Assembly (NCBI GenBank): GCA_965262715.1
Contig: OZ253553.1
Span: 768,001-832,000 of the forward strand
Source of the DNA: Bdellovibrionales bacterium
Lineage (GTDB): Bacteria; Bdellovibrionota; Bdellovibrionia; Bdellovibrionales; JAUICD01
DNA length: 64,000 nt
Direction of reading: 5' to 3'
Under the pieces are notes generated by a model. That model did no database searches, was not told where the DNA came from, and was given only the letters and a program-made list of their open reading frames with translations. The translations under genes and the position numbers were made by a program. The stretch's first letter is position 1. Each line of letters starts with the position of its first letter. This document shows positions 23,638-63,330 of this stretch, piece by piece.

Positions 23638-23814
23638 TTTTCACTAAAATGCATCTGACGTCTCGAGGTGAGCCTCTCGAGGTGAGCCTCTGGTCACTTT
23701 CTGGCAGTAAGTCCGACGGTTCTTACGGCCGTCGGCAAATAGCTTACTGCCTAGGAAGGCTAATGCATTTTAGTAGGGAGGATATTCTTGTATCTTAACA
23801 CAATATTAGGGAAA
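23638..23814. repeat. Family B structured repeat, full copy
   Basis: Nested stems ACTAAAATGCAT/ATGCATTTTAGT, GGCAGTAAG/CTTACTGCC, CCGACGG/CCGTCGG; tandem CTCGAGGTGAGCCT units; tail AGGGAGGATA...ATATTAGGGAAA. Confidence 0.85.
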
Positions 23815-23937
23815 GTGTAGATATTGAGACATAGGTAACAGGTAGGTTAAATTTATAAATATAGGATATAGTTTATTTTTTATTGAAAGTTTTTCAAGTA
23901 GGAATGAACTTACTTGTACTTGTAAAGGTGTTTTGGT

Positions 23938-24885
23938 ATGAAAAAATTTTATATTATATTCTTCACCTTTGTGTTTTTCACAGGCAATGCCTTTGGTTAT
24001 CATTGTTGGTTCCGCCCATATTCTGGAGATATTAGAGTTGCTGGTATTAATGGCAGACTAATCTATACTTTATTCACTTTTCACCTATCTAATGAATACA
24101 AAGATTTTTACAATACTTTAAACTTAGACATTTCTATAACCGATAAGATAGCTCTATGGCATGATTTTCTTAATAAACATGCTGATACAATTAACTCTGA
24201 AAGCTCTGATTTCCTACAAATAAGCTCACTGTTAGCATCTGAAAAAATCGATTGGATTGGAATTGAACATTTCTCTGACACACAGGAACTTAAAAATCAA
24301 GTGCAACGGTATCGATTAGATAAAGAAGGGTTCGATTCATATAGTGATATCTCAATATTTTGGAATGAAGAAAATACTGATGATTTGCTCTATCTTCTTC
24401 ACCCTGTTGAGATAAAACTTCTAGCAGAATATCCAAATAATATCACTCTTGATCGAACAGATAAAATAAGAATCATTCCTCTAGAAAATAGAGACTTACA
24501 ACTGAGATCAAGTGAATTAATAGTAGACTTAATGCAAAAAATTGAAGAGATGTCGGATACGGGTCACATAACAGATGAACAAGAAGTTGCTTTTATTGAT
24601 CTTGTCTTTGATGATGAAAAAAATCCCTCCAGTTTAATTGATTCTCAAGATGTTGAAGAATTTTTTACAAACTTTAGAATAGAAGATTCAGAGATTATAA
24701 CAAAGCTTAGAGAGTTTATTGATTTGCAAAATGCATTTGCTATAACTCATCAAGAGCGAGATGACTTTGCTGTTCAATCTATACTAAACCAAAAAGGTAA
24801 TGGAATTGTTCTTAGAGGTATAAGTCATAAAGAAAGTGTAGAAAATGGATTAACACAGGTCTGTGTAGATTCTGGAAGTTTATAA
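23938..24885 (+). CDS. Secreted TIKI/TraB-like paralog 5 (inverted relative to the others)
   Basis: MKKFYIIFFTFVFFTGNAFGYHC; FTFHL, IDWIGIE, IIPLEN, QERD, GIVLRGISH. Confidence 0.75.
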   Translation: MKKFYIIFFTFVFFTGNAFGYHCWFRPYSGDIRVAGINGRLIYTLFTFHLSNEYKDFYNTLNLDISITDKIALWHDFLNKHADTINSESSDFLQISSLLASEKIDWIGIEHFSDTQELKNQVQRYRLDKEGFDSYSDISIFWNEENTDDLLYLLHPVEIKLLAEYPNNITLDRTDKIRIIPLENRDLQLRSSELIVDLMQKIEEMSDTGHITDEQEVAFIDLVFDDEKNPSSLIDSQDVEEFFTNFRIEDSEIITKLREFIDLQNAFAITHQERDDFAVQSILNQKGNGIVLRGISHKESVENGLTQVCVDSGSL

Positions 24886-24995
24886 GCTATTCCTTATAAA
24901 CTCTCAACATTCATAGAACATCTATGAAGCCATCTCAAAAATGCTACTAGAGATAACAGTTTTAGAAAAAACACCAGTTTTGCATTATACAAACT

Positions 24996-25152
24996 CACTC
25001 AAAATAAACCAGCCTCTCGAGGCTAGCCTCTGGCTGTTTTTGGGCAATCAGCGTGACGGTTAACACCATCAACAAAATGCTGATTGTCTCAAAAACCCGT
25101 TTATTTTAGTAGGGAGGATCTCTTCGTTCTTTTACATCATATTAAGGAAAAT
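24996..25152. repeat. Family B structured repeat, full copy (family A end at 24926 precedes it; partial B at about 25165-25210 follows)
   Basis: AAAATAAAC/GTTTATTTT outer stem, GGCAATCAGC/GCTGATTGTC inner stem, CCTCTCGAGGCTAGCCTC unit, tail AGGGAGGATC...ATATTAAGGAAA. Confidence 0.85.
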
Positions 25153-25422
25153 TTCCTTCATTCTGTTTTACTCAAAATGAATAGCCTTTCTAGGCAATGG
25201 TCTAATGGCAAGAATAAACTGTAACCTATGTCTCAATATGTAACAGATCCCAGAAAAAAGAATGCTTAACTAGATTATGAGCCCTTATTATGAATATTCC
25301 ATGTTATAAGGTGACAGCCGGTTGCCTTTTGTTATAAGAGTATGGCGTATATTTTGTAAATTTTACATTTGATTTTATACGAGCTTTTGTTGCATCAATA
25401 TTAGTAGGTATATAGAGGTTAG

Positions 25423-25576
25423 AGAGTTATGGCAGGCTTCTGGAATAGGCCTAGGCCAGTGCCTCAGGAGATAAAGATTTTATAAAATACTTTATTCTAT
25501 AATAGGTTTTTAAAATAATAGAAATAAAAGGCGCGGGGGATGCCTGCCGCCTATGGAAGAAGCCTGCCATAACTCT
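25423..25576. repeat. Family D hairpin-bounded repeat upstream of dnaB
   Basis: Perfect 19-bp IR AGAGTTATGGCAGGCTTCT (25423-25441) / AGAAGCCTGCCATAACTCT (25558-25576). Confidence 0.8.
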
Positions 25577-25667
25577 TTTATAATGTTTATGCCACAAGGC
25601 CATTTTATACATGTAATTTTTACAAGATGCTCTTATTTAAGTAAAATATAAAGTATTTGGATTTTTT

Positions 25668-30247: not shown

Positions 30248-30411
30248 ATTTCCTTAACATTATGTAAAGAAAGAAGGGTATCTTCCTCCTAAAGATAGTC
30301 AAGCTTTCTAGAGGGCAGGCTACTTGCTGACAGTGCAAACTGCCTGCGCTTACTGTCAGAAAGTTGCCAGAGGCTCGCCTCGAGAGGCGAGATGCAGTTT
30401 AGGGAAACAGC
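30248..30411. repeat. Family B structured repeat, opposite orientation, abutting the mltG stop codon
   Basis: ATTTCCTTAACAT...CAGAGGCTCGCCTCGAGAGGC...TTTAGGGAAACAGC. Confidence 0.8.
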
Positions 30412-31425
30412 TTATTTCAGTTGGTATTTCTTAACAGCTTTTTTATGCTCGCTATAGGTCTTTGAAAAGTAATGTGTACCATCATTACGACTTACAAAAT
30501 AAAGATCATTTATTTTTTCTGGAAAAAGCACAGCATGGAGTGCTTCTCGACCCGGATTAGCAATAGGTTCTAAAGGCAATCCATGAATAGTGTAAGTATT
30601 ATAAGGATTTGGGTTTATGATATCTTTTTTTCTAATATTTTTGATGAGTATACCTGTTTGAGCCAAAATGCCATAAATGATGGTCGGGTCTGACTGCAAC
30701 ATCATTTTTTTGCGGAGTCTATTTAAAAACACAGCAGCAATACGAGGTCTTTCATGTGGCGTGCCTGTCTCTTTTTCTACAATACTTGCTAAACGAACAA
30801 TATCATGTCGATTAAGTTCAGTTTGACTATTTTTTTGCTGCATGACCTGCGAGTAGACAACTAAAAATCGTTTGACCATTGTTTCAATCACTGTTTTAGG
30901 ATTTGATTTTTTTTCAAAATGATAAGTTTCAGGGAAAAAATAACCTTCAAAACTCAAAAGTTTTTGATCTAAAAGATTTTCAATAAAAGTTTGATCTTTA
31001 GATAGTTTTAAGAACTCACTTTTTTGCAGGATATTTTTTTCTTCTAAAATATCTGCGATTTCGTATAAGTTAATACCTTCTGGAAAGGTGATGGGATAGG
31101 AAACACTCTTTCCAAGAGTGATGATATTAAGTATTTCTGGCATTGTCATGGCCGCTGATAGGTGGTATTCACCAGCTCGAATTTTCTCCCCTTGCTTATT
31201 TAACCGACTGTAAACTTTAAATAATGTTGGATCTCTGATAAATTCTTCTTGATATAGTTTTTGCGCAACTTCTTGAGTTGATTGACCTTTTGTGATCTCA
31301 AACACTTTAGATTCTGCCTGTTTTTTGTAGGGACTAGTGATCCACATAAATATCTGACAAGCAAGTCCAATGACAAGGACGCAAATAACAATGCTTAAGA
31401 AAGTAAAAATTCTTTTTATCATCAT
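30412..31425 (-). CDS. mltG: Endolytic peptidoglycan transglycosylase MltG
   Basis: N-terminal TM, ITFPEG, EGYFFPETY, LASIVEKET, NRL..LQSDPT, YNTY..GLP..PIANPG, LYFVS. Confidence 0.95.
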   Translation of the reverse strand: MMIKRIFTFLSIVICVLVIGLACQIFMWITSPYKKQAESKVFEITKGQSTQEVAQKLYQEEFIRDPTLFKVYSRLNKQGEKIRAGEYHLSAAMTMPEILNIITLGKSVSYPITFPEGINLYEIADILEEKNILQKSEFLKLSKDQTFIENLLDQKLLSFEGYFFPETYHFEKKSNPKTVIETMVKRFLVVYSQVMQQKNSQTELNRHDIVRLASIVEKETGTPHERPRIAAVFLNRLRKKMMLQSDPTIIYGILAQTGILIKNIRKKDIINPNPYNTYTIHGLPLEPIANPGREALHAVLFPEKINDLYFVSRNDGTHYFSKTYSEHKKAVKKYQLK

Positions 31426-32124: not shown

Positions 32125-32127
32125 TAT

Positions 32128-35217: not shown

Positions 35218-35612
35218 GATTATCTTGTATAACATAACTTGTTCATTTCTGATAGTGTAAAAGGCAATAAACATAACATTTTGTAAAAATAACAAAAGAC
35301 TGTGAAATTTTTACATGGTTAGCTGTTTTTCCAAAGATGGCTTTGCCTCTGATGATTTTCACTATCAGAAAATAGGTAATGCTTAGAAAAAATAGTCATT
35401 TTTGGGAGAAAGATACTCTCTGTTTTTTTACACAATGATACCATGTTTTATGATTTCAAACACAGCCTACTGACTGCTTTGACTGCCGGATTCCAGAACA
35501 AGGAAGGCCTAATTAGTTATAGGTTAAATTATAAGATTGATAATCTTAAAAAGAGTAAAAAAAATTAATCGTAAAAGTTAACTGCTTAAGATATTACGAA
35601 CCGATTTATTAC

Positions 35613-49960: not shown

Positions 49961-50212
49961 TGAAATCTTTCTTTAGCTCTCTAAAACGAGAAGAGGTTCA
50001 TCTGTGTGAATATAAATCTTTTGAAGATGTATTAAAAAGTATTCCAAAGTTTATTGAAGGAATGTATAACAAAAAAAGGCGACATTCTTCATTAGGTTAC
50101 TTATCACCTAATGAGTTTGAAGCTAAATGGAAAACAGGAGAATTAACAACAATGGGAATCTCAGCAGTGAGTAAATTATGGAACGGATCCTCCAAATAAA
50201 GGGTACACCTCA
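49961..50212 (+). mobile_element. 3' remnant of the second IS3 copy (OrfB C-terminus and right IR)
   Basis: SFFSSLKREEVHLCEY...WNGSSK, near-identical to about 39372-39619; ends GGGTACACCTCA. Confidence 0.92.
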
Positions 50213-50254
50213 TGAAGTTATAATGACCAATGATATCTAATATAGCTTGAACTG

Positions 50255-50401
50255 GTTTCACTCAAAATAAACCAACCTCTGGTTGCTTTCTGGCAATGAT
50301 CCTGACGGCTAATGCCCTCAGCAAATAGATCATTGCCTAGAAAATCTGTTTATTTTGAGTAAGAAGATACTCTTCATTTTTTAATACCATGTTAGGGAAA
50401 C
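50255..50401. repeat. Family B structured repeat overlapping the 3' end of the four-helix-bundle gene
   Basis: ACTCAAAATAAAC/GTTTATTTTGAGT and GGCAATGATC/GATCATTGCC stems; tail ...CATGTTAGGGAAAC. Confidence 0.8.
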
Positions 50402-50615
50402 TATTTAAGTTATATCTAAGTGACCCAAGACTAATCCTATAGAACTTTCTGCGTTCTTTAGCAGTTGGTTTAGCACTGCCTTCAGCTAAGTTAAGCACAA
50501 TACTTAGAGAAGCCCTATGGAACTGGTTTTTAAGGGGTTCTCTTAGATTTAACTTTCTAGAGTTACGATAAAAATTAATAGCTAACTGATAAGTTTTGAA
50601 TTTTTGCATCGTCAT
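50337..50615 (-). pseudogene. Four-helix-bundle protein (23S rRNA IVP/Avd-like), C-terminally truncated
   Basis: FKTYQLA, LKNQFHRASLSIVLNLAEGS, ERRKFYRISLGSLR; similarity stops there and the rest is read mostly from the B repeat; ATG at 50615 after AGGAGG. Confidence 0.8.
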
Positions 50616-50690
50616 AAAAATTTCCTCCTTTATAAAACCCGCCAGGGCTTGGGAGGAAATTTTTAAGGTGCAATAATTCAAATTATGGGT

Positions 50691-51130
50691 GCCGGACATT
50701 TTGATTCCGGGTACTGTTTGCCCGATTGCCAGATCCCGGAATAAAGAGGGTTTAAAGTGTCATGAACCTTAATATTTATACAATAATGCTAATGGATTTT
50801 ATAACTTTTGAGGGCTTTGTTGCACAAATATCAATTTTACTTTGTGTGCTAGAGATTTATATGCCTCCTTAAATCTTTCTAAAACAAAGCCATTTTTGAT
50901 GATAAAAACTTTTAAACTGTTTCATATTGATCCTGGATTCTGACAAACAGGCAATCGGACAACGGTTCCCGGGATCAGCTTGCCGGAATGCTTGACTCCC
51001 AGACCGTCAGAAGGGTGCATTTATATATATATATTGAGACATAGATAACAGTTTAAGATGATGCCTGATACTGATGCCAGTTTGCCCGACTGCCAGATCT
51101 CGGAATAATATGTACTGTACATTTTGAGAC
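50691..51130. repeat. Cluster of family C CCGG-rich repeats
   Basis: TTTGCCCGATTGCCAGATCCCGGAATA (~50717), TTTGCCCGACTGCCAGATCTCGGAATA (~51081), ATATTGAGACATAGATAACA (~51031). Confidence 0.65.
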
Positions 51131-51187
51131 ATTTTAATATCGAGTATTTAACCTATATTCTCTTTAAAGAAAGCTATAGATAAAGTT

Positions 51188-51215
51188 TAACTTTATCCCT
51201 CGAAATAACCGATAA
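51188..51215 (+). promoter_or_regulatory. Possible sigma-28 (FliA)-type promoter upstream of the Tad genes
   Basis: TAACTTTA-N12-ACCGATAA versus consensus TAAAGTTT-N11-GCCGATAA. Confidence 0.35.
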
Positions 51216-51340
51216 ATTAAGTACATTCATAATGTTTGTTCATATTAGATTAAACTATTTTTTGTTTAAGCGATGTGAACTGATTTTTTGATGTAAAATA
51301 TATGAATACTTATGAATTTAAATAAAGAGGAGTGTGATAT

Positions 51341-51559
51341 ATGACTATAGAAATGATAATCTTAATAGTCATTACAACATTTGTAGCATTTGGTCCTGAT
51401 GGTGAAAGTGGTATTTTTAAGACACCTTTAAATACTTTTAAAGAGGCAGGTTCTTATCTTGGAGGTCGAATTGAAAGGCAATTAGATACAGCTGCAGGGT
51501 TTCAAGAAAAAGCTCTTGATACTGCAAATCCGGGCAATCGGCTTAATTGGTCTAAATGA
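51341..51559 (+). CDS. Small TadE/pilin-like protein
   Basis: MTIEMIILIVI pseudopilin-like N-terminus; in the Tad locus. Confidence 0.55.
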   Translation: MTIEMIILIVITTFVAFGPDGESGIFKTPLNTFKEAGSYLGGRIERQLDTAAGFQEKALDTANPGNRLNWSK

Positions 51560-51640
51560 AATGAAAGTAAGGAATATTAAGTTATTCATGGTTTTGGGTA
51601 AACTTATAAGATCTCATGAGTTTTATTTTATAGGATTATT

Positions 51641-52162
51641 ATGAATATGAATGAACTATTTATCTCTATATTACTTCCTTCTTTGATCCTGATTATAGGA
51701 GTTGTGGATGATATTTACTTTCGTAAATTTCATAATTGGTTATTTTTATCTCTTTTTGCATTTACTTTATGCTTTTCGATTTTCTTTAATGGATTTGATG
51801 GATTTGTAAAAGGAGCTTATGGACTCGCTCTTGTTTTTGCTCTTACCCTCCCTCTTGTTCTATTAGGCATTTTGGGAGGTGGAGATATGAAGTTACTAAT
51901 GGTTTTTGCTTTAGCCACAAATACACAAGCCGTTTTTAATGTTATTCTTATCTCTTTTTTATGGGGCGGTCTTATGGGCTTTATGTATGTTATTATCTCA
52001 GGTCAATTTACCGAGCTTTTATACAATTTAAAAGGATTGCTTTTTTATCAGATTAAACCTTTAAAGTCATCATTACATGTGATCCCATACACTGTTCCTC
52101 TGTGTTTGGCGTGGTTCACTTACCTTTCTCTAGAGTCTTATGGAGTGCAAATATGGTTTTAA
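51641..52162 (+). CDS. cpaA: Prepilin peptidase CpaA/TadV (A24 family)
   Basis: VVDDIYFRKFHNW and LGGGDMKL aspartate motifs; IPYTVP; multi-TM. Confidence 0.88.
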   Translation: MNMNELFISILLPSLILIIGVVDDIYFRKFHNWLFLSLFAFTLCFSIFFNGFDGFVKGAYGLALVFALTLPLVLLGILGGGDMKLLMVFALATNTQAVFNVILISFLWGGLMGFMYVIISGQFTELLYNLKGLLFYQIKPLKSSLHVIPYTVPLCLAWFTYLSLESYGVQIWF

Positions 52163-52221
52163 ATTTTATAAAACAATATTTTATGAATACATTATTATCT
52201 TTAAAGATAAAAAATTGTTTG

Positions 52222-52521
52222 ATGAAAAAAAATAACTACTACTCATTTTCAAATAAGAAAGGACAAGCTACAGTAGAGATGATTTTGTTATTATCTTTAT
52301 TTCTCCTTTTTTCAGCTACTATATCAACAGTTCTTAAAGATTCAGAAGTTGCAAAAACAATTATTGGCAAACCATGGAAGGTAGTCAGTGGAATGATAGA
52401 AAGTGGAACTTGGCAAGAAAACCCGGGTACCGATATACATCCTTTGCATCCTGCTGTGGATCCTGCTGTGGATTCTGCTGTGGATTCTGTAAAGAGGCGC
52501 TTATCTGTTGAGGGTGAGTGA
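52222..52521 (+). CDS. TadE-like pseudopilin
   Basis: NKKGQATVEMILLL motif; PW..VSGMIESGTW; start uncertain (52155-52222). Confidence 0.7.
   Translation: MKKNNYYSFSNKKGQATVEMILLLSLFLLFSATISTVLKDSEVAKTIIGKPWKVVSGMIESGTWQENPGTDIHPLHPAVDPAVDSAVDSVKRRLSVEGE
52448..52489 (+). repeat. In-frame 12-bp tandem repeat (about 3.5 units)
   Basis: ATCCTGCTGTGG x2, ATTCTGCTGTGG, ATTCTG; encodes PAVD-PAVD-SAVD-SV. Confidence 0.85.
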
Positions 52522-52530
52522 GGTGATTCG

Positions 52531-53100
52531 ATGAAGTTTTTAAAAGATGAAAAAGGAGTTTTAGCTTTTGATTTTTTATTTGGATTAATGATTATGACAG
52601 GTTTTTTTATATTGGTCATCATGCTGAATTTTACACTCTCTGTTATAGAATCGATACAATATATAGCCTTTGCCACTTCTAGAACTTACTATGCAGCTGA
52701 TGAGAATGTTACTAAATCAGAAGAGGCTGCTGAAAAAAAGTACAATGATTTAAAAGAGGAAGGAATGTTAAAATCCTTACTTAGAGAAAAATGGTTTAAA
52801 ATGTCACCAAAACCGGTTTTTAAAAAAGATGGATCAACTAAGGGAGTACGTTTAGATGTTACAGCTAAGGTGTTGTCTTTTAATCTACCTTTTTTCTTAG
52901 GCAATACAGGAGAAGCTAATTCTTTTAAGACAAATGTGAACTCTTATATAGGAAGAGAGCCATCTATGCAGGATTGTATAGATTATAATGAAGTAATTAA
53001 GGATGAAATATTAAATCTTGATTCCTCATATCAGGATTCTACGATTTCTGGCCATATGAAGGCAGCACCTATAATGGCAGCAGGAGATAATGGATGTTAA
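52531..53100 (+). CDS. TadE/TadF-like pseudopilin
   Basis: DEKGVLAFDF plus hydrophobic helix; C-terminal GREP...C...DNGC. Confidence 0.65.
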   Translation: MKFLKDEKGVLAFDFLFGLMIMTGFFILVIMLNFTLSVIESIQYIAFATSRTYYAADENVTKSEEAAEKKYNDLKEEGMLKSLLREKWFKMSPKPVFKKDGSTKGVRLDVTAKVLSFNLPFFLGNTGEANSFKTNVNSYIGREPSMQDCIDYNEVIKDEILNLDSSYQDSTISGHMKAAPIMAAGDNGC

Positions 53101-53594
53101 AGACATGTATTTCAAAAAAATATTTTAAAAAGCAAAAAGGGATGGCCTCTATTGAGGCTGTGGTTTCTATTATACTTTACCTTGCATTGTTGAGTTTTAG
53201 CTTGGGATCTTTTGGTGTAGTCCACTCGGGGATTGTTAATTCTATTGCAGCACGTAATTATGCTTTTGATACCTTCAATAACCGAACATATCTTAAATAT
53301 CATAGAGATACCCTTTTTGGTGGTGGTCTTCACTCTCATAAGAAAAATGGATTTAGGTTGCACACTATTACATCAGAAACAAGTCCGCCAAATAATGAAG
53401 ATTTTATAGCTACAAAAAGATATATTGCTTTTGCAAAAGTACATAATGATAAAGAGAAAGGAAATAATAGTGATGAACATGAAAAAATGGTAGAAGATGC
53501 AAAAGATGGTGTCAATGAAGGTTATTCATTCAACCCTGTATGGGTCAAAGCAGCTTATGGCATTTGTTTAAATGCTAATTGTAAACCTGAATAG
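53094..53594 (+). CDS. TadE-like pseudopilin
   Basis: QKGMASIEA plus hydrophobic helix; SIAARNYAF; terminal GICLNANC. Confidence 0.7.
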   Translation: MLKTCISKKYFKKQKGMASIEAVVSIILYLALLSFSLGSFGVVHSGIVNSIAARNYAFDTFNNRTYLKYHRDTLFGGGLHSHKKNGFRLHTITSETSPPNNEDFIATKRYIAFAKVHNDKEKGNNSDEHEKMVEDAKDGVNEGYSFNPVWVKAAYGICLNANCKPE

Positions 53595-53608
53595 ATAAGG
53601 AGTACAAA

Positions 53609-54433
53609 ATGAACTCAAATCCAACAAGAACATTATTTTTATCTTTAGGTGCTGGTATTTTTGCGATGTTTCTTGTGTACAGTTATTCACAGGAGAAGAA
53701 AGCGGAATATGACAAAAAATATGGTACAACTAAACGTGTTGTAGTGGCCACAACAGAGATTGTAGAAATGCAAACTATAGATGATACAATGGTGGAATAC
53801 AAAGAAGTTCCTATTAGTTTTGTACAACCAGGAGTTGTCACCGACCCAGAAGAAGCGATCAATACTATTGCTGCTACAACTATTTTAAAGGGTGAACAAA
53901 TTCTAAAAACAAAACTCTTAGCCCCAGGGCCTATTACAGGTCTTTCTAGTCAAATTGCTCCTAATAAAAGAGCTGTTACTATTTCTGTGGATGATGTGAG
54001 AGGAGTGGCAAAGCTTTTAAGACCAGGTGATCGTGTTGATATACTGGCATCTTTAACCAGTGGTGATAGCAGAAACCGTAAGGTTGAGGTTAAAACTATT
54101 ATGCAAGATATTGTGATCTTAGCTACAGGCGTGAATATCACAAATAATCTTCCTCGTTCTCCAGAGTTGGAAAATGGAAATTTGATTGGTTTTAGAAATC
54201 TTAATGGAGATACCTCCTTTAGAACAGTGACTTTAGAAGTTAGCCCTAAACAGGCGCAAGATCTCGTGTTTTTGCAGGTGGCATCACCTGGAGGTATCTA
54301 CCTTATATTACGTAATGGGATTGATCGTCAAAACTCAAGGCCTCCAAAAAGTGATATGAATTCTTTATTGGGAAGAGTGGCTACGCAGGCTTATAAACGT
54401 CCACTTGAATCTTTAAAGAAAAGGAATAATTGA
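53609..54433 (+). CDS. cpaB: Flp pilus assembly protein CpaB/RcpC
   Basis: TM, SAF domain (VVVA...I.KGEQI), KRAVTISVD..GVAKLLRPGDRVDI, VTLEVSP.QAQ. Confidence 0.92.
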   Translation: MNSNPTRTLFLSLGAGIFAMFLVYSYSQEKKAEYDKKYGTTKRVVVATTEIVEMQTIDDTMVEYKEVPISFVQPGVVTDPEEAINTIAATTILKGEQILKTKLLAPGPITGLSSQIAPNKRAVTISVDDVRGVAKLLRPGDRVDILASLTSGDSRNRKVEVKTIMQDIVILATGVNITNNLPRSPELENGNLIGFRNLNGDTSFRTVTLEVSPKQAQDLVFLQVASPGGIYLILRNGIDRQNSRPPKSDMNSLLGRVATQAYKRPLESLKKRNN

Positions 54434-54439
54434 TTATTT

Positions 54440-56014
54440 ATGAAAAGCAAAACTATCATTCTTTTTTTACTTATCTGGGTATTTTCTATCGGAAATAATA
54501 CAGATTTTAAAACCTACCTCTCATCAAATTGGGTATCATTTAACTTTGCAAATGCTCAGCAGAATAATGAGCAAAAAAAAGATAGAAAATACATAAATCT
54601 TGTAGTAGGGCTTGATGAAAATATAAAAGTGCCTTCAATGCCAAGAGGATATAAACTTAAAGGAGATTTTAAAAGACTCACATCTGTAACATACGTCAAA
54701 AGTCTTGAAACTTTGCGTTTTTCACCAAAAAAAGTAGGTTCTGCTACTTTGACTATCGAAGATGCTAAAGGCCGTATTATTTCAGAACTTTTTCTGACTA
54801 TTAGAAATAGTGATCTTAACAAAGTGGCGAAGGAGATACAGCTACTTCTTTTTGAAATTGATGGTATCACAGTGAGAATCATTAACAATAAAGTGATTGT
54901 TGATGGACAGGTTTTACTTCCTAAGGAATTAGGCCGTATTTATTCTGTTGTTCAGCAATACGGGGATAAAGCATCTAACCTTGTAACTTTAAGCCCTATT
55001 GCTCAAAGAAAGATTGCAGAGTATATAGAAAGAGATATTAATAATCCACAAATCCATGTAAGAAATGTCAATGGTAAATTTCTTTTAGAGGGCATTGCAG
55101 ATATTGGTTCTACAGCAGAAAATGAAAGAGAAAGAGATCGTGCCGAGGCTATTGCCAAAGTTTACTTTCCTGATATAGAAGTTGTTAAAGGAGAAGGTAA
55201 AGTTATTAAGAGGATTTCATCTCAGCATGTTATTAACCTTATTAGAATACCTCCAGAAGAGCGACCAGCTGCTCAGAAAAAACCACAGGATAAGTTGGTT
55301 CAAATTATTGTTCATTTTGTTGAACTCAGTAAGGATTATGAAAAATTTTTTCGATTTGATTGGACTCCTCAAATTGGTGATAAAACAGGGTATGACTTTA
55401 AGACACAAGGTGGTAGTGGTTTAGGGGGAATTATTGGTTCTATTTCAGGAACTATTTCAAATCTTCTTCCTAAACTCAATTGGGCTAAACAACATGGTCA
55501 TGCCCGTGTCTTACATAGTGCCAGTGTCATGGTAAAAGATAAAAGTCCTGGTACAATCAATTCTACCTCAAAGATCCCTTTTGTGGGTATACAAAGTACT
55601 GGAAATGGTGGAGTAGTTCCTGGAAATCAATTTACAGAACCTGTTGGAATTGAGTCAGTTATTACTCCTAGAATCATAGGAGCTAACGATAATATTCAGC
55701 TAGAAGTGTCTTTTAAAGTTTCAACTCCTAGTTCAGGCTCACCTCCTACTATATCTACAAACTTAATAAAGACAGTTGTGATTGTGAGATCTCGTGAAAG
55801 TGCAGCTATTGGAGGTCTTGTTTCTCAAGTGAGTGCAACAGGTTATAATAAACAGCCTAGAAGCGGTGATAATCCGCTTATATCTCTTTTTGCATCAAAG
55901 GATTTTCGAAGAAGGCAAACACAGTTTGTTGTTTTTGTCACTCCTATCATCAAAGCTTCTGCCAGTTCTGGATCTGACCGTATCAAACATAAATTTCGCC
56001 TTTACAATAATTAG
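54440..56014 (+). CDS. cpaC: Flp pilus secretin CpaC/RcpA with BON-like domains
   Basis: Signal peptide; VIVDGQV and FLLEG BON-like segments; VHFVELSK, GHARVL, AAIGGLV, LF.SK.F, FVVFVTP. Confidence 0.85.
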   Translation: MKSKTIILFLLIWVFSIGNNTDFKTYLSSNWVSFNFANAQQNNEQKKDRKYINLVVGLDENIKVPSMPRGYKLKGDFKRLTSVTYVKSLETLRFSPKKVGSATLTIEDAKGRIISELFLTIRNSDLNKVAKEIQLLLFEIDGITVRIINNKVIVDGQVLLPKELGRIYSVVQQYGDKASNLVTLSPIAQRKIAEYIERDINNPQIHVRNVNGKFLLEGIADIGSTAENERERDRAEAIAKVYFPDIEVVKGEGKVIKRISSQHVINLIRIPPEERPAAQKKPQDKLVQIIVHFVELSKDYEKFFRFDWTPQIGDKTGYDFKTQGGSGLGGIIGSISGTISNLLPKLNWAKQHGHARVLHSASVMVKDKSPGTINSTSKIPFVGIQSTGNGGVVPGNQFTEPVGIESVITPRIIGANDNIQLEVSFKVSTPSSGSPPTISTNLIKTVVIVRSRESAAIGGLVSQVSATGYNKQPRSGDNPLISLFASKDFRRRQTQFVVFVTPIIKASASSGSDRIKHKFRLYNN

Positions 56015-56450
56015 AACCGGTCTCAAAAATAAAGATTTGATAAACATTTCCAGTGATTTATAACTTTATCTAACTACTTTCACTAAAATGCATCTGACCT
56101 CTCGAGGCGAGCCTCGAGAGGCTTGTCTTCTATTCATTTTGAGTAGAAGCAGGATGAAGGAAGTTTTCCTTAACATGATGTAAAAGAACGAAGAGATTCT
56201 CTCTACTTAAAATAAACGGATTTTTGAGGCAATCAGCATTTTCTTGAAGGCGAGAGCCTTCAGGCTGACTGGTAAACAACAATGATTTCCTTAACATTTT
56301 GTTAAACAACGAGGGTAGTCTCCCTCCTAAAAATAGACAAATTTTTTAGGCAATGATCATTTTACGAGGATGTTAGTCGTCGTGATCATTGCCAAAAAAC
56401 AGTCAGAGGCTGGTCTATTTTTAGGGAAATAGATATTAGAAGCCATTTCT
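56012..56450. repeat. Composite repeat cluster: family A end plus three family B modules
   Basis: TAGAACCGGTCTCAAAA at 56012; B modules at about 56078-56148, 56164-56272 and 56286-56430 (AAAATAGAC/GTCTATTTT, GGCAATGATCA/TGATCATTGCC); TAGAAGCCAT at 56437. Confidence 0.8.
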
Positions 56451-56533
56451 TTGGTTTTGCTTACTTTTTTAAGAGCTTGACAGGTCTGTAAAAATAAAGT
56501 TAAGTGAATTCAATTATTTACAAGGGTATCCTC

Positions 56534-57919
56534 ATGGCATCTGTAAAGACTGTTTTTGTTTGTCAAAATTGTGGAAGTCAAAGAAGTAAGTGGGAAGGTA
56601 GATGCACGGACTGTGGCCAGTGGAATACTTTTCATGAGGAAATTATTGATAAACAACCCTCAAAGCAAGGCATAGTGCTTGGAGGCAACACTTCTCAAAT
56701 TATAAAGTCTAGTCAAATACTTAAGGAAGTGGATATTGTTCGTTTTCCCTCTGGTTTTGCGGAACTAGATCGCGTTCTTGGGGGAGGTATAGTTCCTGGT
56801 AGCTTTGTTCTATTAGGAGGAGATCCTGGAATAGGAAAGTCCACATTACTGTTGCAAATGACAGGACATTGCGCAGCTAACAAACAAAAGGTTCTTTATA
56901 TTTCTGCTGAGGAGAGTGTTGGGCAATCTGCACTGAGAGCGCAGAGACTTGGCATCTTTGAAGATGATTTAGAGATCACCAGTGAAAGTAATTTAGATCA
57001 TATTATGACACTTGTTAAAAAGCGTCATCCTGTTTGTTTGATTATAGATTCTATACAGACAGTTTTTACACCTCACATACTTTCTGCCCCTGGTACAGTC
57101 TCTCAAGTGAGAGAATGCGCGGCTTCTTTGATGGGACTTGCTAAAAATGAGGGTATTGCTATTTTTTTAGTGGGTCATGTCACTAAAGAAGGGGAGCTTG
57201 CTGGTCCAAAAGTGTTAGAACATATAGTTGATACTGTATTGTCATTTGAAGGAGATAATAATTACCAATACCGACTATTAAGAACTCTTAAAAACAGATT
57301 TGGCGCAGCTCATGAACTTGGTGTTTTTGAGATGACATCTTCGGGATTACGTGATGTGCAAAACCCCTCAGAAATATTTCTGCAAGATCGCTTAGGAACA
57401 TCTATAGGTTCTGCAGTTATGGCTTCTGTCGAAGGAACACGTCCTGTTTTATGTGAAATACAAGCTCTTTCTGTTAGGTCTTATACGACTCTGCCGCGTA
57501 GAACTTCTTTGGGAATTGATGTCAATCGCTTATTTCTAATTCTTGCTATTTTAGATAAGTTTATGCATTATGATTTTTCCAGAAAAGATGTATTTGTTAA
57601 TGTCGTTGGAGGTTTAAGAATTAAAGAGACAGCTTCAGATTTAAGTGTTTGTGGAGCATTGATTTCATCAGAAATAGGTATTTCTTTGCTTTCCAAGTCT
57701 TGTTTTTTTGGAGAGGTGGGTTTAACAGGTGAAGTTCGAGGTGTAGCATTTGCTGATGTGCGTTTAAAGGAAGCGCAAAAATTAGGGTTTAAAGAATTTT
57801 ATTTACCAAAATCTAACTTAAAGCATATAGAAAAAGAAATAGTGAATAAAGCTAAAATACATGACTTAGATCATATCTCTCAATTAAAAGACTTATTAAC
57901 ATTTGAAAAACTTAAGTAA
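56534..57919 (+). CDS. radA: DNA repair protein RadA/Sms
   Basis: CQNCG...CTDC zinc finger, GGDPGIGKST, IIDSIQT, KNRFG, GEVGLTGEVR. Confidence 0.97.
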   Translation: MASVKTVFVCQNCGSQRSKWEGRCTDCGQWNTFHEEIIDKQPSKQGIVLGGNTSQIIKSSQILKEVDIVRFPSGFAELDRVLGGGIVPGSFVLLGGDPGIGKSTLLLQMTGHCAANKQKVLYISAEESVGQSALRAQRLGIFEDDLEITSESNLDHIMTLVKKRHPVCLIIDSIQTVFTPHILSAPGTVSQVRECAASLMGLAKNEGIAIFLVGHVTKEGELAGPKVLEHIVDTVLSFEGDNNYQYRLLRTLKNRFGAAHELGVFEMTSSGLRDVQNPSEIFLQDRLGTSIGSAVMASVEGTRPVLCEIQALSVRSYTTLPRRTSLGIDVNRLFLILAILDKFMHYDFSRKDVFVNVVGGLRIKETASDLSVCGALISSEIGISLLSKSCFFGEVGLTGEVRGVAFADVRLKEAQKLGFKEFYLPKSNLKHIEKEIVNKAKIHDLDHISQLKDLLTFEKLK

Positions 57920-57934
57920 AGGGAGACATTTTTA

Positions 57935-58498
57935 ATGGTAGATTTTTCTTTATATAAAAACCTTCCTAATTCCTTAACAATCATGCGTATTCTACTCACT
58001 CCGGTGATTGTTGTTTGTTTATATTTTGAAACAGGTTTTTGGAATAACATAGCTGTCTTCTTTTTTATCATGGCTTCTATCACAGATTACTTTGATGGTT
58101 ATTTAGCAAGAAGGTATCAACTCAAATCCACATTTGGACAACTGATAGATCCTGTAGCTGATAAAATCTTGATAAACAGTGTATTGATCATGTTAGTTGC
58201 ATTAGGACAGTTAGATGCTGCCATAGTTATTGTATTTATGATCAGGGATACTTTTGTGCAAGGAGTGCGCTCATGTGCTGCTGCTGAAAACTTGATCATT
58301 GAAGCTGTTGTTATTGGAAAATGGAAAACCTTATTTCAAATGATAGGATTAGTTGCAATCATTATAAATTTGCCATTTATTACGCTACCTCTTTACCAAA
58401 TAGGTTATGGTCTGCTTTGTCTTAGTGTTATCTTAAGTCTTATTTCAGGATATCAATATTGTTTTTGTTATTATAAGAATACATTTAAAAAAAACTAG
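57935..58498 (+). CDS. pgsA: CDP-diacylglycerol--glycerol-3-phosphate 3-phosphatidyltransferase
   Basis: NLPNSLT..R, TDYFDGYLARR, FG..IDPVADK, GKWKT..QM. Confidence 0.93.
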   Translation: MVDFSLYKNLPNSLTIMRILLTPVIVVCLYFETGFWNNIAVFFFIMASITDYFDGYLARRYQLKSTFGQLIDPVADKILINSVLIMLVALGQLDAAIVIVFMIRDTFVQGVRSCAAAENLIIEAVVIGKWKTLFQMIGLVAIIINLPFITLPLYQIGYGLLCLSVILSLISGYQYCFCYYKNTFKKN

Positions 58499-58651
58499 AA
58501 GCGGTCTCAAAAATAAAATATTTGCATTTTACAATATCTCTATTCCGGGATATGGCAGTCCGGCAAACAGGCAATCACTTCCCGTCAAACTGTTTCACGG
58601 ATTGCCCGACTGCCAGATTTCCGGAATATTTGTACATATTGAGGTAACAGC
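58496..58651. repeat. Family A end plus family C hairpin element between convergent genes
   Basis: TAGAAGCGGTCTCAAAA; TATTCCGGGATATGGCAGTCCGGCAA ... TTGCCCGACTGCCAGATTTCCGGAATA inverted repeat; TGTACATATTGAGGTAACA end. Confidence 0.75.
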
Positions 58652-58927
58652 TTATTTTTTAAGATATGATTCAAAGGGAATATGAGGGTCTTTTTGATTC
58701 CATACAGATGGACTTGATTGTAAAATAGATCTGAAAAGAAATCGGATATCTGTCCATTTATCGTTTAGAATTAGAGATAGAGGAACATGTACAACTCTTC
58801 TATCTTGAATAAAATGTAGATGTTGATCTTTTGCGATAACTTTGAATTTATCTAACTGAAAAGCATCTAAGATATTGCAGGCCATTTGTTTTTGCTGCTC
58901 TGTCATTTGGCTATCTAAACTGTTCAT
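58652..58927 (-). CDS. Hypothetical protein
   Basis: 91-aa ORF with an AAGAGG RBS; no recognised motif. Confidence 0.55.
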   Translation of the reverse strand: MNSLDSQMTEQQKQMACNILDAFQLDKFKVIAKDQHLHFIQDRRVVHVPLSLILNDKWTDIRFLFRSILQSSPSVWNQKDPHIPFESYLKK

Positions 58928-59009
58928 TTAAAAAAACCTCTTACTTGTTTGAAAATTATGTCAATGATATTTTCTTATCATAGTATCACCTTATTAACAA
59001 CTAGTTTAC

Positions 59010-59364
59010 TAGAAGCCATCTCAAAAATAAAGTTTTATATCACCCGTTCAGAAATAAAAGCATTTCCCTTAACATTGCGTAAAAAAATGAAAGATATCTA
59101 CCCTACTCAAAATAAACGGATTTTTGAGGTAGTCAGCATTTTACTGACAGGAATACATCCCATAGGAATAGATCCCGTAGGGATACATCCCGTAGTGTGA
59201 ATGGTCAGGCTGGTTACCCAAAAACAACCAAAGTTTCACCTCGGGAGGTTCACCTCGGGAGGTTCACCTCGAGAGGCTAGCCTCGAGAGGCCAGTTCATT
59301 TTTAGAGAAACAGGTTGTTTTGAAAAAAACATGGACATTAGAATTAATTTTGAAATGAGTTCTA
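59010..59364. repeat. Family A element enclosing an expanded family B module
   Basis: TAGAAGCCATCTCAAAA ... TTTTGAAATGAGTTCTA ends; B module about 59062-59314 with 3x15-bp (59149-59193) and 4x14-bp (59235-59290) tandem units. Confidence 0.8.
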
Positions 59365-59365
59365 T

Positions 59366-61210
59366 TTAAAATTGAGTGCTAATCCCTAACCATTTGGCTT
59401 GTAGTCTTAAAAGAGGTTTATAATTTTTTGATAAATCATAGGCTTCCTGAAAATATTCTTTTGCTGCAATGCGGTTTTGTTCTATTTCACTAATGCGAGC
59501 AAAACTGGTTTTGATTTGGAGTTGAAAAAGGCCTGATAGTAGTAAGTTGTCTAAAAGCGTTTTTCTAACTTCTATATCTTTTATACTAGTAGAATTGGTA
59601 CATAAGCGTTCTTGTAATAAGATTGCCAGATGATATTCATGTCGCTTGAGTATTCTGCAGGCTTGTTCCACAAAACCTGATTTATGATCTATATAAGCAG
59701 ATAAGGTTTGAATTTTTTGATTACTTTCGTCTAAATTAAGAGCTTCATTGATCTGATTTTTACCTTCTTGTTTATTTCCTGTTTTAAAATTCAAAAACCC
59801 GTAAACAGCAAGTAGAATAGGATCTTTTCCCCATTCAGCAAAATTTTTAATTTCATTAAAAATGAACATAATGGTATTTGACCAAAGTAATTCATCGAGA
59901 TAATAGTAAAGTGGACTGTGAAAATGCTGATCTGTTAAATCTAAGTCTAATTCTAAAATATCTTTTAGTAAGTCTTCACTAATGTCTGTCTCGCCTAATA
60001 GTAGCCGTAATAATGCTCTCATTATTAATGCTTCTAATTTGAAATCATAGGTTCTTTCTTGATATTCTTCTAAAGAAACAGCTAAATCATCTAAATCTTC
60101 ATCATTTATATCACCTCCTGAGTTTTGTTCATTGCCTTCTTCTTTAGCTTTTAAGCTCAAATAACTTTTAGCGGCATTTGCAGCTCGATGTAGTAGTAAG
60201 ATGCCCTCAAATTTAGAATAATCCTCAGGTGGAGTGTTAGCTGAAGTTATGATATCTGAACTGTATTGTTCTGCTGCTTTTTTATATTCTTCATTTAAAA
60301 AATAAAGAGTGCCTAGATTAATGATGGCAGGGAGAAAAGATGGATTTTGCTCGAGCGTATTATTAAGGTTTTGCATTGCTTTGGAAAGTTCTTTTGTTTG
60401 TAGATCGATCAAAGCCATATAGTGATATATACGATATTTTACATTTGATACTGTATTTAATGATTTATCATGTAGAAGTCTTCTGGCTTCTACATACTTT
60501 TTTTGAAGAATAAGAACTTCTATTAAATGGGAAAAAGCTTGCAGATGATTTGGTGCTGAACTTAAAATACGTCTAAGGTCTCTTAGTGAGTTCTCATAAT
60601 GCCCAAGTTTTATATTTATTGTAGATCGATCGAAGAGCATTTTATTTGTTTTTTCTGTTCCAGCTTTTTGCTGCACTATAAATTGTTGTTGAGAATAAAA
60701 TAAGTAAGCTCCAATTGATATAAGCCCTATCAGTAGAAGGAGTGGTTTTTGTATAGATTTATATTTTTTAAATAAAGTAGATGTTTCTAATATCTCTACA
60801 GGTTTTGGCTTTTTCTCTATTTTCTTTTTTTCAGCAACAGAGGCTTTTTTTCGAACGATTCTCTTCTTATCAATAGTGGTACTTGCAGGTAGCTTCTTAT
60901 AGGGTAATCTTGATGTTCCTTTTGGCTTTTGTACAGTGATGTCAAAAAAACCAGTAACAGAAGGGTCCACTTGGTCGATCTTTTCTGTGGCATCTGTGTG
61001 TTCTATTCTGCTAATTTCTGTATGATCACTAATTTTAAACAGAAGGTTAAACTCTTCACAATTTTTTAGAAATCCAAATCTTGAAAAAGGAGCGGCTATT
61101 TGATCTGTTTCTAAGATCTCTTTATTATTGATCTGAGCAATAATTTCTGCTTGATTGAAAGGACCAAGAATTTGTGATCCTTCCTTAATAATCCAAATTT
61201 TATCACTCAA
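59366..61210 (-). CDS. TPR-repeat membrane-anchored protein with N-terminal GYF-like domain
   Basis: WIIK...ILGPF N-terminus, single TM, TPR-like helices (PAIINLGTLYF..EYKKAAEQY); TTG start. Confidence 0.7.
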   Translation of the reverse strand: MSDKIWIIKEGSQILGPFNQAEIIAQINNKEILETDQIAAPFSRFGFLKNCEEFNLLFKISDHTEISRIEHTDATEKIDQVDPSVTGFFDITVQKPKGTSRLPYKKLPASTTIDKKRIVRKKASVAEKKKIEKKPKPVEILETSTLFKKYKSIQKPLLLLIGLISIGAYLFYSQQQFIVQQKAGTEKTNKMLFDRSTINIKLGHYENSLRDLRRILSSAPNHLQAFSHLIEVLILQKKYVEARRLLHDKSLNTVSNVKYRIYHYMALIDLQTKELSKAMQNLNNTLEQNPSFLPAIINLGTLYFLNEEYKKAAEQYSSDIITSANTPPEDYSKFEGILLLHRAANAAKSYLSLKAKEEGNEQNSGGDINDEDLDDLAVSLEEYQERTYDFKLEALIMRALLRLLLGETDISEDLLKDILELDLDLTDQHFHSPLYYYLDELLWSNTIMFIFNEIKNFAEWGKDPILLAVYGFLNFKTGNKQEGKNQINEALNLDESNQKIQTLSAYIDHKSGFVEQACRILKRHEYHLAILLQERLCTNSTSIKDIEVRKTLLDNLLLSGLFQLQIKTSFARISEIEQNRIAAKEYFQEAYDLSKNYKPLLRLQAKWLGISTQF

Positions 61211-61281
61211 ACTTTAAATTCCTTTAATGAGGTTAGGGTTTATAAGAAGAGTTTATAGAACAATTGTATAAAATTCAATTC

Positions 61282-62805
61282 TTAGTGTAGAAAATGTCTT
61301 TGTCCTGTTAGAATTAAGTTGATTTTCAGCTGTTTTGCCCTTTGAATAACTTGATGATCGTTGATAGATCCTCCTGGTTGCACGACCCATTGAATCTTCT
61401 CTTCAAATGCTTTTTCTATAGCATCAGTGAAAGGAAAAAAGGCGTCACTTGCTAAAATAACATCTTGTTTATCTTTGTGGCATAATTTCCAACGTGAAAT
61501 AGCATGGCAAAGGGCATCTATGCGATTTGTTTGCCCCATACCTAAACCTAGTGTTTGTTGTGCTGATGTGATGGCTATGGCATTACTTTTCAAACAAGCT
61601 ACTGACTTCCAGGCAAAGGCAATTGCCTTGCGAATTTCTTCAGATGGATCTTGACCTAAGACCTGCCAAAAATTTGACCAAGGTTGAATTTTATCTTCTG
61701 ATTGCAAAACATATCCACCAAAAATATCTTTTATAGACATTGTTGGAGGTTTATCTTCACACATTTGATCCCAAGCAAGGACTCTTAAGTTCTTTTTTTC
61801 TTGGAGTATCTTTTTAGCATCTGGTTCAACTTGAGGAGCGATCACACATTCTAAAAAGATAGATGTTAGCTTTTTTGCAATAGATGGAGTGATAGGTGAG
61901 TTTAAGGCGATGATACCTCCAAAAATACTTATAGGATCTGCAGACAAAGACATAGAAAGAGCCTTCATTGGGTCTGAATTTGTTGCAATGCCGCAAGGGT
62001 TATTGTGTTTTAATGAGATCACAGTTGTTTTATCTTTAAAAACTCTTAATGTTTTCACCGCAGCGTTAATATCTAAAATATTGTTATAAGACAAAGGCTT
62101 ACCTTGTAAGACTTGAGCTTGATGGAGCCCCCACTTTTCCCCTCTATATTTAAACCAATATCCTTTTTGTAGAGGATTTTCTCCATACCTTAAGGGTGAG
62201 TGTTTTTGACCTCCTTGACCCATTTGAGGAAAAACTTTTTGAGGAGCAAGTGTTTTAGCAATCAGCGCATCATAGGAAGAGACATGATGAAAAGCCTTAG
62301 CACTTAAATATCTTTTTTCTTCTAGTGAAAATTCATCTTGATTGAAAAGAAGATTATAATCTTCTGGGTTGCAAATGACCAAAAGAGACTCAAAATTTTT
62401 AGCAGCAGCTCTAAGCAATGCCACTCCTCCAATATCGATATATTCGCTTAATTGTCGGTAATTTATTTTCTCTTTTATATTTTCTTCAAAGGGATAGAGG
62501 TTGCATATCAATAAATCGAAAGCTTGTATATTCATCTCTTTTAAAAGGAGTTGATCTTCCTCATGAAAGTGGCGAGCAAGCAAAGGGATATGTATATGAG
62601 GATGAAGTGTGCGGACACGCCCATCCATAACTTCTGGAAACTCTGTTTGTTGAGAGACAGGTATAGCATTAATACCATTTTTTTTAAGATAGTTTGCACT
62701 GCCATCTGTTGCAACAATGCGAGTTTTATCTTGAGATAGTTTTAAGGCAAGATCTAATAGCCCTGTTTTGTCAGATACACTGATAAGCACGTTTTTAAAT
62801 TTCAT
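61282..62805 (-). CDS. purH: Bifunctional AICAR formyltransferase/IMP cyclohydrolase
   Basis: LISVSDKTG, GRVRTLHP, NLYPF, IDIGG, LRYGENP.Q, KHNNPCG, KSNAI, ASDAFFPF, QPGGS, RHFLH. Confidence 0.97.
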   Translation of the reverse strand: MKFKNVLISVSDKTGLLDLALKLSQDKTRIVATDGSANYLKKNGINAIPVSQQTEFPEVMDGRVRTLHPHIHIPLLARHFHEEDQLLLKEMNIQAFDLLICNLYPFEENIKEKINYRQLSEYIDIGGVALLRAAAKNFESLLVICNPEDYNLLFNQDEFSLEEKRYLSAKAFHHVSSYDALIAKTLAPQKVFPQMGQGGQKHSPLRYGENPLQKGYWFKYRGEKWGLHQAQVLQGKPLSYNNILDINAAVKTLRVFKDKTTVISLKHNNPCGIATNSDPMKALSMSLSADPISIFGGIIALNSPITPSIAKKLTSIFLECVIAPQVEPDAKKILQEKKNLRVLAWDQMCEDKPPTMSIKDIFGGYVLQSEDKIQPWSNFWQVLGQDPSEEIRKAIAFAWKSVACLKSNAIAITSAQQTLGLGMGQTNRIDALCHAISRWKLCHKDKQDVILASDAFFPFTDAIEKAFEEKIQWVVQPGGSINDHQVIQRAKQLKINLILTGQRHFLH

Positions 62806-62943
62806 TCGGCTATGCCTTTTTTATATGCCTTTTCTAACAAATATCGTTTTGAGTAAATATTATTTTTTTGATGTGCTCTATCAAATATGAAAAGTCATCA
62901 ATTGTCTACAATAAACTTAAAATAAAAAGGTTTGACTCATAAC

Positions 62944-63330
62944 TAGGAGCGGTCTCAAAAGTGCTAGGGTTAGTATTTAAATTTACGATCTAGAGTTATG
63001 GCAGGCTTCTTACATAAGCAAACAGGCAACCCCCGCGCCTTGTATTGTTGTTATTTTATAATTTTATTATAGAATCAAATACTTTAATAAAGACTTTAAC
63101 ATTTTGTTAAAAAACGAAAAGTATCTGTTCTACTCAAAATGAACGGATTTTTGAGGCAATGATCTGATGGCAAAGATAAAGTTCCTCTAACATTGTATCA
63201 AGAGATAAAGATATCCTCCCTACTAAAATGCATTATACTTTCTAGGCAGTAAGCTGTTTTGCCGTCGGGCATACTGCCAGAAAGTGGTCAGAGGCTAGCC
63301 TCGAGAGGCCAGACTATTTTTAGGGAGAAG
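62944..63330. repeat. Composite repeat cluster: family A end, truncated family D, partial and full family B
   Basis: TAGGAGCGGTCTCAAAA (62944); D copy 62992-63098 matching the reverse complement of 25423-25576; B modules at about 63093-63170 and 63181-63330. Confidence 0.8.

Follow-up and report, generated by a model that had tools for sequence, protein, structure and literature searches.

A dispersed intergenic repeat with a conserved three-way-junction fold and polar ends in two Bdellovibrionales genomes

The spread of small non-coding bacterial repeats without a matching transposase, such as the CGTC REPs, YPAL and RPE, is a long-standing question. Two groups of described elements are closest to the repeat analysed here. 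REPINs, of the REPIN/RAYT system, are found as hundreds of intergenic, hairpin-forming, non-coding copies that nest and form tandem clusters, and a single-stranded route has been proposed for them (PMC3116915; PMC3733652). YPAL/RU-2 of Yersinia, like the CIR, RPE, ERIC and Correia repeats, is ∼150-170 nt long with internal inverted repeats and no terminal TA; its targets lie beside hairpins, and recent mobility is described without a proven transposase (PMC2229807). The present repeat, termed family B in a first-pass annotation, is found in a 64,000-nucleotide stretch (the window, G000:C1:768001-832000) of a Bdellovibrionales genome, G000, which consists of a single contig of 2.94 Mb with 33.6% GC. 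It behaves like REPINs and YPAL-type repeats but falls outside what defines either.

The differences lie in structure, partners and insertion sites. The repeat forms one asymmetric three-way junction and not two inverted REPs, and no RAYT is found beside it or is common to its hosts. Its AG(T/G)A letters, which are GTAG-like, pair and covary in the outer stem and are therefore not an unpaired tag. YPAL elements have target duplications of 3-26 bp (PMC2229807), whereas duplications are rare here in solo copies. As described, YPAL is also set apart by the deep covariation of the present family at ∼70% identity, its strand-specific GNNA loops and its polar ends, one fixed and one variable. No description of this repeat was found in searches of the openly accessible literature. 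The best reading is that of a non-autonomous, one-endedly copied repeat of the REPIN/YPAL kind. In its fuller form, a non-coding selfish repeat would fold as single-stranded DNA and be copied from one fixed end by a host-encoded or unrecognised enzyme, to which we assign a probability of roughly 0.5.

Copies were called with an nhmmer profile built from repeat copies (E<=0.01). G000 has 483 matches, 310 of them full, which occupy 2.2% of the genome; the same profile gives 0 matches in the reversed G000 genome. The dispersed repeat first proposed is thus real, and the stems, 14-nt units and tail then quoted are all present in the sequence. One congeneric genome, G001, has 1,245 matches (677 full; 6.1%), counted over the first 2.4 of its 2.57 Mb. 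Both genomes are 90-93% complete, G001 being at ∼90%. The repeat is almost wholly intergenic: 8 of the 483 G000 copies are mostly within open reading frames (ORFs) of at least 150 aa, and such ORFs make up 74% of the genome. The family fills 2-6% of small genomes, where it creates arrays and gene disruptions. It is unusually informative, with more than 1,700 matches in two genomes, a structure held at ∼70% identity, a defined strand, polar junctions and a candidate protein partner.

A covariance model was searched in 151 genomes of the order, with 20 candidates scored per genome, and matched three, G000, G001 and G004. In G004 only small contigs carry matches, and these contigs are 82-95% identical to G000 and in part syntenic with it; the large G004 contigs are only about 65-72% identical to it, and the repeat contigs are thus most likely binned-in G000-like DNA. 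Judged from sequence, contigs C1, C4 and C11 of this bin probably belong to a close relative of G000 and are contamination, including a ribosomal protein operon. A co-occurrence of the repeat with the protein family PF05635 in three genomes was considered and G004 dropped from it, as its repeat contigs are likely foreign to the bin. With the G004 copies assigned to the relative of G000, the repeat is restricted to a single genus within the set of genomes searched. Exact-pattern scans of Joint Genome Institute (JGI) metagenomes and IMG/VR gave 0 matches, as did blastn against phage and plasmid records. A pattern scan of GTDB gave at least 80 loci, among the matches listed all in one Bdellovibrionales record. 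In Rfam 15 the window has 0 matches and five loci gave only scores far below the gathering threshold, so that, in the window and the five loci searched, novelty with respect to Rfam holds. The large G004 contigs carry a different hairpin repeat of ∼115 nt with constant ends and variable paired arms (e.g. G004:C12:183590-183800); it has 66 matches, 0 in G000-G003, and is found beside four-helix-bundle genes.

In the folded unit an outer stem (P1) of ∼13 bp leads to a three-way junction, from which a 5-bp arm (P2) and a long arm (P3) extend. The P2 loop is where the 14-nt units are inserted. P3 has a bulged T that is conserved, an internal loop that is asymmetric and, at its apex, a hairpin (P4), and the tail beyond the junction unit has two weak hairpins. 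DNA folding z values are -8.8 and -10.5 for two copies and -3.9 for a damaged one. In 29 copies 95.4% of the cells are paired, compared with 32-45% when partners are slid, and 30 of the 43 pairs show two-sided change. Covariation was compared with tree-based simulations, 40 for the G000 set and 60 for the two-genome set. Seven nested Watson-Crick pairs in 174 G000 copies are above the maximum of the 40; in 188 copies from both genomes, seven pairs over P1-P4 and none off the structure are above the maximum of the 60, and 226 pair-preserving double changes are placed on branches vs about 40 expected co-occurrences. Mean identity between copies is about 70%, and the fold is kept through many paired changes. 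The maintenance of secondary structure despite sequence change, first suggested from the window, is therefore borne out by seven pairs beyond the tree-based null, with no Rfam family. The covarying stems then described also survive this null, but they are arranged around a three-way junction and are not nested stems only. At rpsQ-rplN, an orthologous site, the whole long arm has been swapped with the outer stem and flanks kept; copies thus recombine, which makes one tree an imperfect control for relatedness.

The two strands of the element are not equivalent. The top strand starts with TC(A/C)CT(A/C)AAA and ends with ATGTTA(A/G)GGAAA, and is the strand quoted in the first-pass annotation; the B strand is its complement and carries the GNNA loops. 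On the top strand, A-C and G-T mismatches in P3 number 64:25 in G000 (173/205 distinct copies parsed) and 92:19 in G001 (460/508), and G·T wobbles thus fall on the B strand. Apical loops are GNRA on B in 76/113 cases and, in G001, in 260/417, and never on top. GNNA loops comprise 409 of the 417 parsed G001 loops, 149 of these being GNYA, and all four third bases occur in this loop family. The octamer GCGNNAGC is present on the B strand in 48/245 distinct full copies of G000 and 474/592 of G001, compared with 0 and 1 on the top strand of the same copies. Apical octamers of this class include GCGAAAGC, in 181 G001 copies, and GCGTTAGC, in 8 G000 copies. Wobbles and GNNA loops consequently sit on the strand opposite to the one first quoted.

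Integron attC sites, which act as folded DNA, likewise fold in a strand-specific way, and in them unpaired bases are conserved while the tip varies. The present copies differ in being dispersed in both orientations, not one per cassette, and there are no cassette-like arrays. A likeness in the loop itself is GCGNNAGC, described as an exceptionally stable DNA mini-hairpin, weaker as RNA, that is located at priming sites of phages G4, St-1 and alpha3 (PMC13037366). The same octamer class is at the apex in both settings and on one strand only; here it caps a chromosomal repeat, and any priming is putative. The strand-specific GNNA loops, often GCGNNAGC, favour single-stranded DNA over RNA. The loop series with its GNYA members appears to fit the DNA mini-hairpin rule better than the RNA GNRA rule, and the B-strand loops would favour single-stranded DNA while leaving room for RNA.

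A possible but doubtful alternative is that the folded strand is an RNA: read-through transcripts would be trimmed at the outer-stem base, so that the 3′ end is fixed and the 5′ leader variable, and would be reverse-transcribed into targets like a bacterial short interspersed element (SINE) with an Avd-like protein as cofactor. The fixed 3′ and variable 5′ ends of the GNNA strand resemble 5′-truncated retrocopies, yet solo copies lack target duplications (2/56; 0/37). GNRA loops are in the majority and the wobble pairs are on the GNNA strand, as this alternative expects, but 149 of the 417 G001 loops are GNYA. There is a weak sense bias, with sense vs antisense copies at 66:44 in G000 (p=0.045) and 75:61 in G001. 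G000 has three reverse transcriptase (RT) matches, namely the RT of a group II intron, a broken relative of that RT and a retron RT, and Avd is described as acting with RT in diversity-generating retroelements (PMC6182149). However, G001, which has the most copies, gave no PF00078 match, and phmmer/tblastn of its first 2.4 Mb detected no RT-like ORF. The non-coding RNA offered at first as one reading is thus weakened by GNNA loops with all third bases, a sense bias that is slight and a host without RT.

Copies change places between related genomes. In a comparison with the 82-95% identical relative, G000 lacks the repeat at two sites where the relative has it, and the relative lacks one full copy that is present in G000. 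Among 2,140 ortholog gene sides compared, 359 carry the repeat in one genome only (139 in G000 and 220 in G001), and 35 carry it in both. Mobility, as first suggested, is thus supported by filled and empty sites, and sites are mostly lineage-specific. In four read runs over window positions 49000-64000 no clean empty site was seen. The 35 shared sites are twice the chance level (p=0.001), and at a retained site arms were exchanged. These two features, together with the almost exclusively intergenic position (8/483) and a certain over-representation of convergent gene pairs (47/193 vs 207/1,205), would suit a regulatory structure retained by the host, be it an mRNA stabiliser, a terminator or a nucleoid site, that spreads by recombination and gene conversion. 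We regard this as very unlikely, as the repeat interrupts genes and other repeats, forms nested piles that take up 2-6% of the genome at mostly lineage-specific positions, and was not found in 148 of the 151 genomes of the order.

The ends are polar. The border at TC is sharp, to about six bases, and roughly half of the independent copies have (C/T)TG(T/G)(T/C) in front of it; the pentamer just before TC is CTGTT, CTGTC or TTGTT in 89/181 independent copies and TTGTT, CTGTT or TTGGT in 195/404. At the GGAA end copies run on into tails rich in pyrimidines and into shared flank families for up to hundreds of bases, and a short inverted echo of the end opens 40/181 tails, compared with about 18 after shuffling. 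One-ended rolling-circle elements of the IS91 type share this general form: one precise end, read-through past the other and no target duplication. At sites with an empty paralogue, a few to tens of target bases are gone or replaced. There is no positional signal for a fixed-length target duplication in 181 copies, and no excess over shuffled flanks for duplication scores of 6-8. Flanking direct repeats occur in 29 of these 181 copies, mostly array units, and duplications of 10 or more in 2/56 and 0/37 solo copies, the two cases being 21 and 25 bp; long duplications were accordingly rejected as an insertion signature. An inverted target duplication, suggested by the junction of the copy at 50255, was likewise rejected (5.19 vs a null of 5.12).

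These findings bear on whether the family is made up of MITEs (miniature inverted-repeat transposable elements) or REPIN-type elements whose transposase was lost or is absent from the two assemblies, with nesting and arrays as recombination debris. The ends are imperfect ∼10-nt inverted repeats, both assemblies are only 90-93% complete, REPINs too are described as nesting and forming tandem clusters (PMC3116915), and families without a dedicated transposase are known, e.g. the CGTC REPs (PMC3733652). Nonetheless this origin appears unlikely. Relative to MITEs of DDE insertion sequences (ISs), the repeat has only imperfect end symmetry and no fixed target duplication; its ends are asymmetric, and its internal structure is conserved while its sequence is not. 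The ends of IS1634, IS30, IS5, IS256 and IS3 in G000 have no likeness to the repeat ends, and of the IS types only IS1634 and IS256 are common to G000 and G001. G000 has a sole Y1 gene, an IS200 TnpA that is bounded by hairpin ends of its own and lies about 1.8 kb away from the closest copy of the repeat; G001 has no RAYT/Y1.

Copies nest into loops and junctions of other copies, and the element is amplified in tandem together with its flank: arrays consist of the element and its GGAA-side flank repeated. Restarts of the TC end at the P2 small-arm loop, with a period of 26-27, number 27 in G000 and 135 in G001; G001 also has 26 at the junction (period 19) and 18 at the internal loop (period 53-55). 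Location of targets at dyad symmetry is clear for nesting in the repeat's own loops, with single cases at a CRISPR (clustered regularly interspaced short palindromic repeats) repeat and a tRNA end. One array is behind a tRNA end and another inside a ribosomal protein operon. The copy at a CRISPR array end (G000:C1:482096-483059) has a 25-bp duplication and lies between a truncated and a full CRISPR repeat, and a related copy is at an isolated CRISPR repeat at 490460, 7.5 kb from the array. Insertion of the Cas1 spacer type was considered for these two and rejected as not general. A third hairpin module of ∼190 nt is found in G000, following the GGAA end in 43 flanks (e.g. at the copy at 2170642) and the TC end in 15.

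A search for an enzyme in the two genomes gave no RAYT/Y1, RT, IS110 or end-matching IS common to both. IS110, AEP primase, Y-family polymerase, Rep_trans and PDDEXK_3 have no matches in either genome. PF02486 was negative in 2/2 genomes with a working control, and Y2 (PF04986) in 5/5 with a control that was also silent. Each genome has one ∼650-aa ORF with a GIY-YIG match and 4-5 cas1 loci, and the TnpB zinc ribbon is found only in ∼1,350-aa ORFs beside cas1. Two tyrosine recombinases of 320 and 185 aa are encoded in G000. No autonomous parent, with an ORF between split repeat ends, was detected in G000. Rpn nucleases, multicopy in both genomes, were considered as partners and rejected for want of a consistent arrangement. 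The initial proposal of a REP/BIME-like element moved in trans therefore agrees with the behaviour of the repeat, but a RAYT or other cognate enzyme common to both hosts does not accompany it. As the genomes are 90-93% complete and most of the 1,070 proteins they share are unannotated, absence of an enzyme is not proven. At G000:C1 about 2650500-2652300 a retron St85-type effector is fused to an RT in one 590-aa ORF.

The only candidate partner with a positional link is a four-helix-bundle (Avd-like) protein. The copy at 50255 interrupts a gene of this family (PF05635/TIGR02436; nearest solved structure 2GSC). A copy lies within 300 bp of 20/33 four-helix-bundle loci in G000 (background 15%) and of 30/30 in G001 (background 32%). 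Many of the loci counted are pieces of related composites and are not independent of each other. In G001 a co-oriented B-strand copy follows within 200 bp after 8/9 intact four-helix-bundle genes vs 79/1,442 other genes and likewise after 183/347 heptamer tracts, and units of a 5′-truncated gene, a tract and the element recur. Heptamer tracts beside such genes have been described for Coxiella (PMC4990558). Cassettes of this family (S23p; XCC0516, PDB 2GSC) resemble the repeat in being multicopy with no known enzyme, carry heptamer tracts (PMC4990558) and are coupled to it in G001; the repeat differs in being gene-less and far more numerous, and 55 of the 58 genomes that encode the protein family gave no match to it. 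Repeat and gene are thus truly linked, but in a lineage-specific way, and the link may represent hitch-hiking, a preferred target or a cofactor role. An orthologous gene containing a helix-turn-helix (HTH) motif is flanked on both sides by the repeat in the two genomes (G000:C1:2621162-2622310; G001:C1:1220364-1221533); in G000 it adjoins a four-helix-bundle gene.

If the repeat is copied from one end as single-stranded DNA, the GNNA-bearing B strand would serve as the folded template, and synthesis of the TC-start strand would begin at the outer-stem base. The new strand would join a target 3′ end through a 1-5 nt (C/T)TG(T) microhomology, with loops and junctions of hairpins, other copies included, as preferred targets. 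Synthesis would then cross the unit and a variable donor flank, after which microhomology would rejoin the product to the chromosome, usually with a few to tens of target bases lost or replaced. Arrays could arise by repetition of the process at the donor's own TC end.

Several observations count against this scheme of one-ended, single-stranded copying. Orientation shows no clear lagging-strand bias (99:94 by replichore in G000, from global skew); local skew gives biases of 86:57 and 33:15, but genes tilt similarly and the two are not separable. GNRA loops are still the majority, one-strand G-T wobble fits RNA equally, and the full mini-hairpin octamer is in only 48 of the 245 G000 copies. 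The G001 arrangement with four-helix-bundle genes is present in G000 at only 1/10 intact genes and 2/40 tracts, and PF05635 is in 58 of the 151 genomes of the order and the repeat in 3, so that the protein alone does not suffice. Because copies swap arms, correction for relatedness by one tree is incomplete, and a measure of further pair types is no higher than in shuffles (436/500). Since the two genomes gave no cognate enzyme, we infer the copying chemistry.

A bolder form of the same idea, which we hold to be rather improbable, is a DNA parasite without any enzyme: the folded strand, with a mini-hairpin cap resembling those of phage single-strand priming sites, would make host replication or repair proteins start a new strand at the TC end and would so copy itself and its neighbours, four-helix-bundle cassettes included, without transposase or RT. 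This might be a general route for such cassettes and for lineage-specific hairpin repeats. The family opens in vitro and heterologous tests of a single-stranded route assisted by host enzymes or by the four-helix-bundle protein.

By nhmmer the window holds seven full and five partial copies in both orientations (Table 1), in agreement with the ∼10 first counted, when the partial copy at 35338-35439 was overlooked. Up to four 14-nt units had been reported, and four are present at about 59238-59297. The length was first given as ∼170 nt; the core is ∼146-150 nt and exceeds this only through the 14-nt units. The locus at 3691, then listed among the copies, shares only the outer stem and TC end, and represents a rare variant with 4 loci in G000 and 0 in G001.

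Table 1. Repeat copies and the interrupted gene in the window. Strand is that of the TC start for copies; the folded GNNA strand is the opposite one.
Position	Strand	Feature	Evidence
3686..3768	-	simplified variant; outer stem and TC end shared, inner hairpin different, within AGAAGCCATCTCAAAA-type short repeats	fold z -7.5
23639..23814	+	full copy, two 14-nt units in small arm	nhmmer 104.8 bits, model 2-148; sequence
24995..25150	+	full copy, one 14-nt unit	120.3 bits
25128..25209	-	inverted partial copy abutting GGAA end of 24995 copy	model 69-146, E 2.7e-4
30248..30408	-	full copy directly 3′ of stop of ORF 30412-31425	93.4 bits
35338..35439	+	partial copy without TC end	model 39-141, 39.1 bits
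50255..50400	+	full copy inside four-helix-bundle gene near codon 67-70	126.9 bits; intact paralogue G000:2560995 as empty site
50415..50615	-	aa 1-67 (5′ part) of the four-helix-bundle gene (TIGR02436 / PF05635) that the 50255 copy interrupts	family match
56078..56104	+	short TC-start fragment, then 14-nt units	weak match, model 2-30; sequence
56165..56274	-	partial copy without TC end, adjoins 56286 copy	model 39-148, 93.5 bits
56286..56429	-	full copy	114.1 bits; fold z -10.5
59064..59311	-	full copy, four 14-nt units and expanded apical hairpin	82.1 bits; sequence
63095..63170	-	partial host copy; 63182 copy nested in its apical loop	model 70-144; sequence
63182..63328	-	full copy, shortened apical hairpin	86.9 bits

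Other repeats are present in the window as well. Short end motifs of the AGAAGCCATCTCAAAA type at window positions 3605 and 59011 have 44 exact matches in G000 and 0 in G001; they have the look of MITE ends, and no transposase has been assigned to them. A second hairpin repeat of ∼155 nt, family A, with ends GAGTTATGGCAGG and CCTGCCATAACTC, is located at 25421-25580 and near 62992, and has about 74 loci in G000 and 0 in G001.

Transposases of IS30, IS3 and IS1634 are encoded in the window at 20112-20885, 38402-39606 and 47686-49338, respectively, and IS1634 has ∼40 related ORFs in the genome. Five paralogous ORFs of ∼170-330 aa are clustered at 17757-24885 and belong to a family with 20 members in the genome; the one member scanned has no Pfam or NCBIfam match. 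The same is true of a 1,741-aa ORF at 41394-46619, near which is a type I restriction R-like fragment (39849-40400). A Tad/Flp pilus assembly cluster with CpaB and a secretin is found at 51641-56014.

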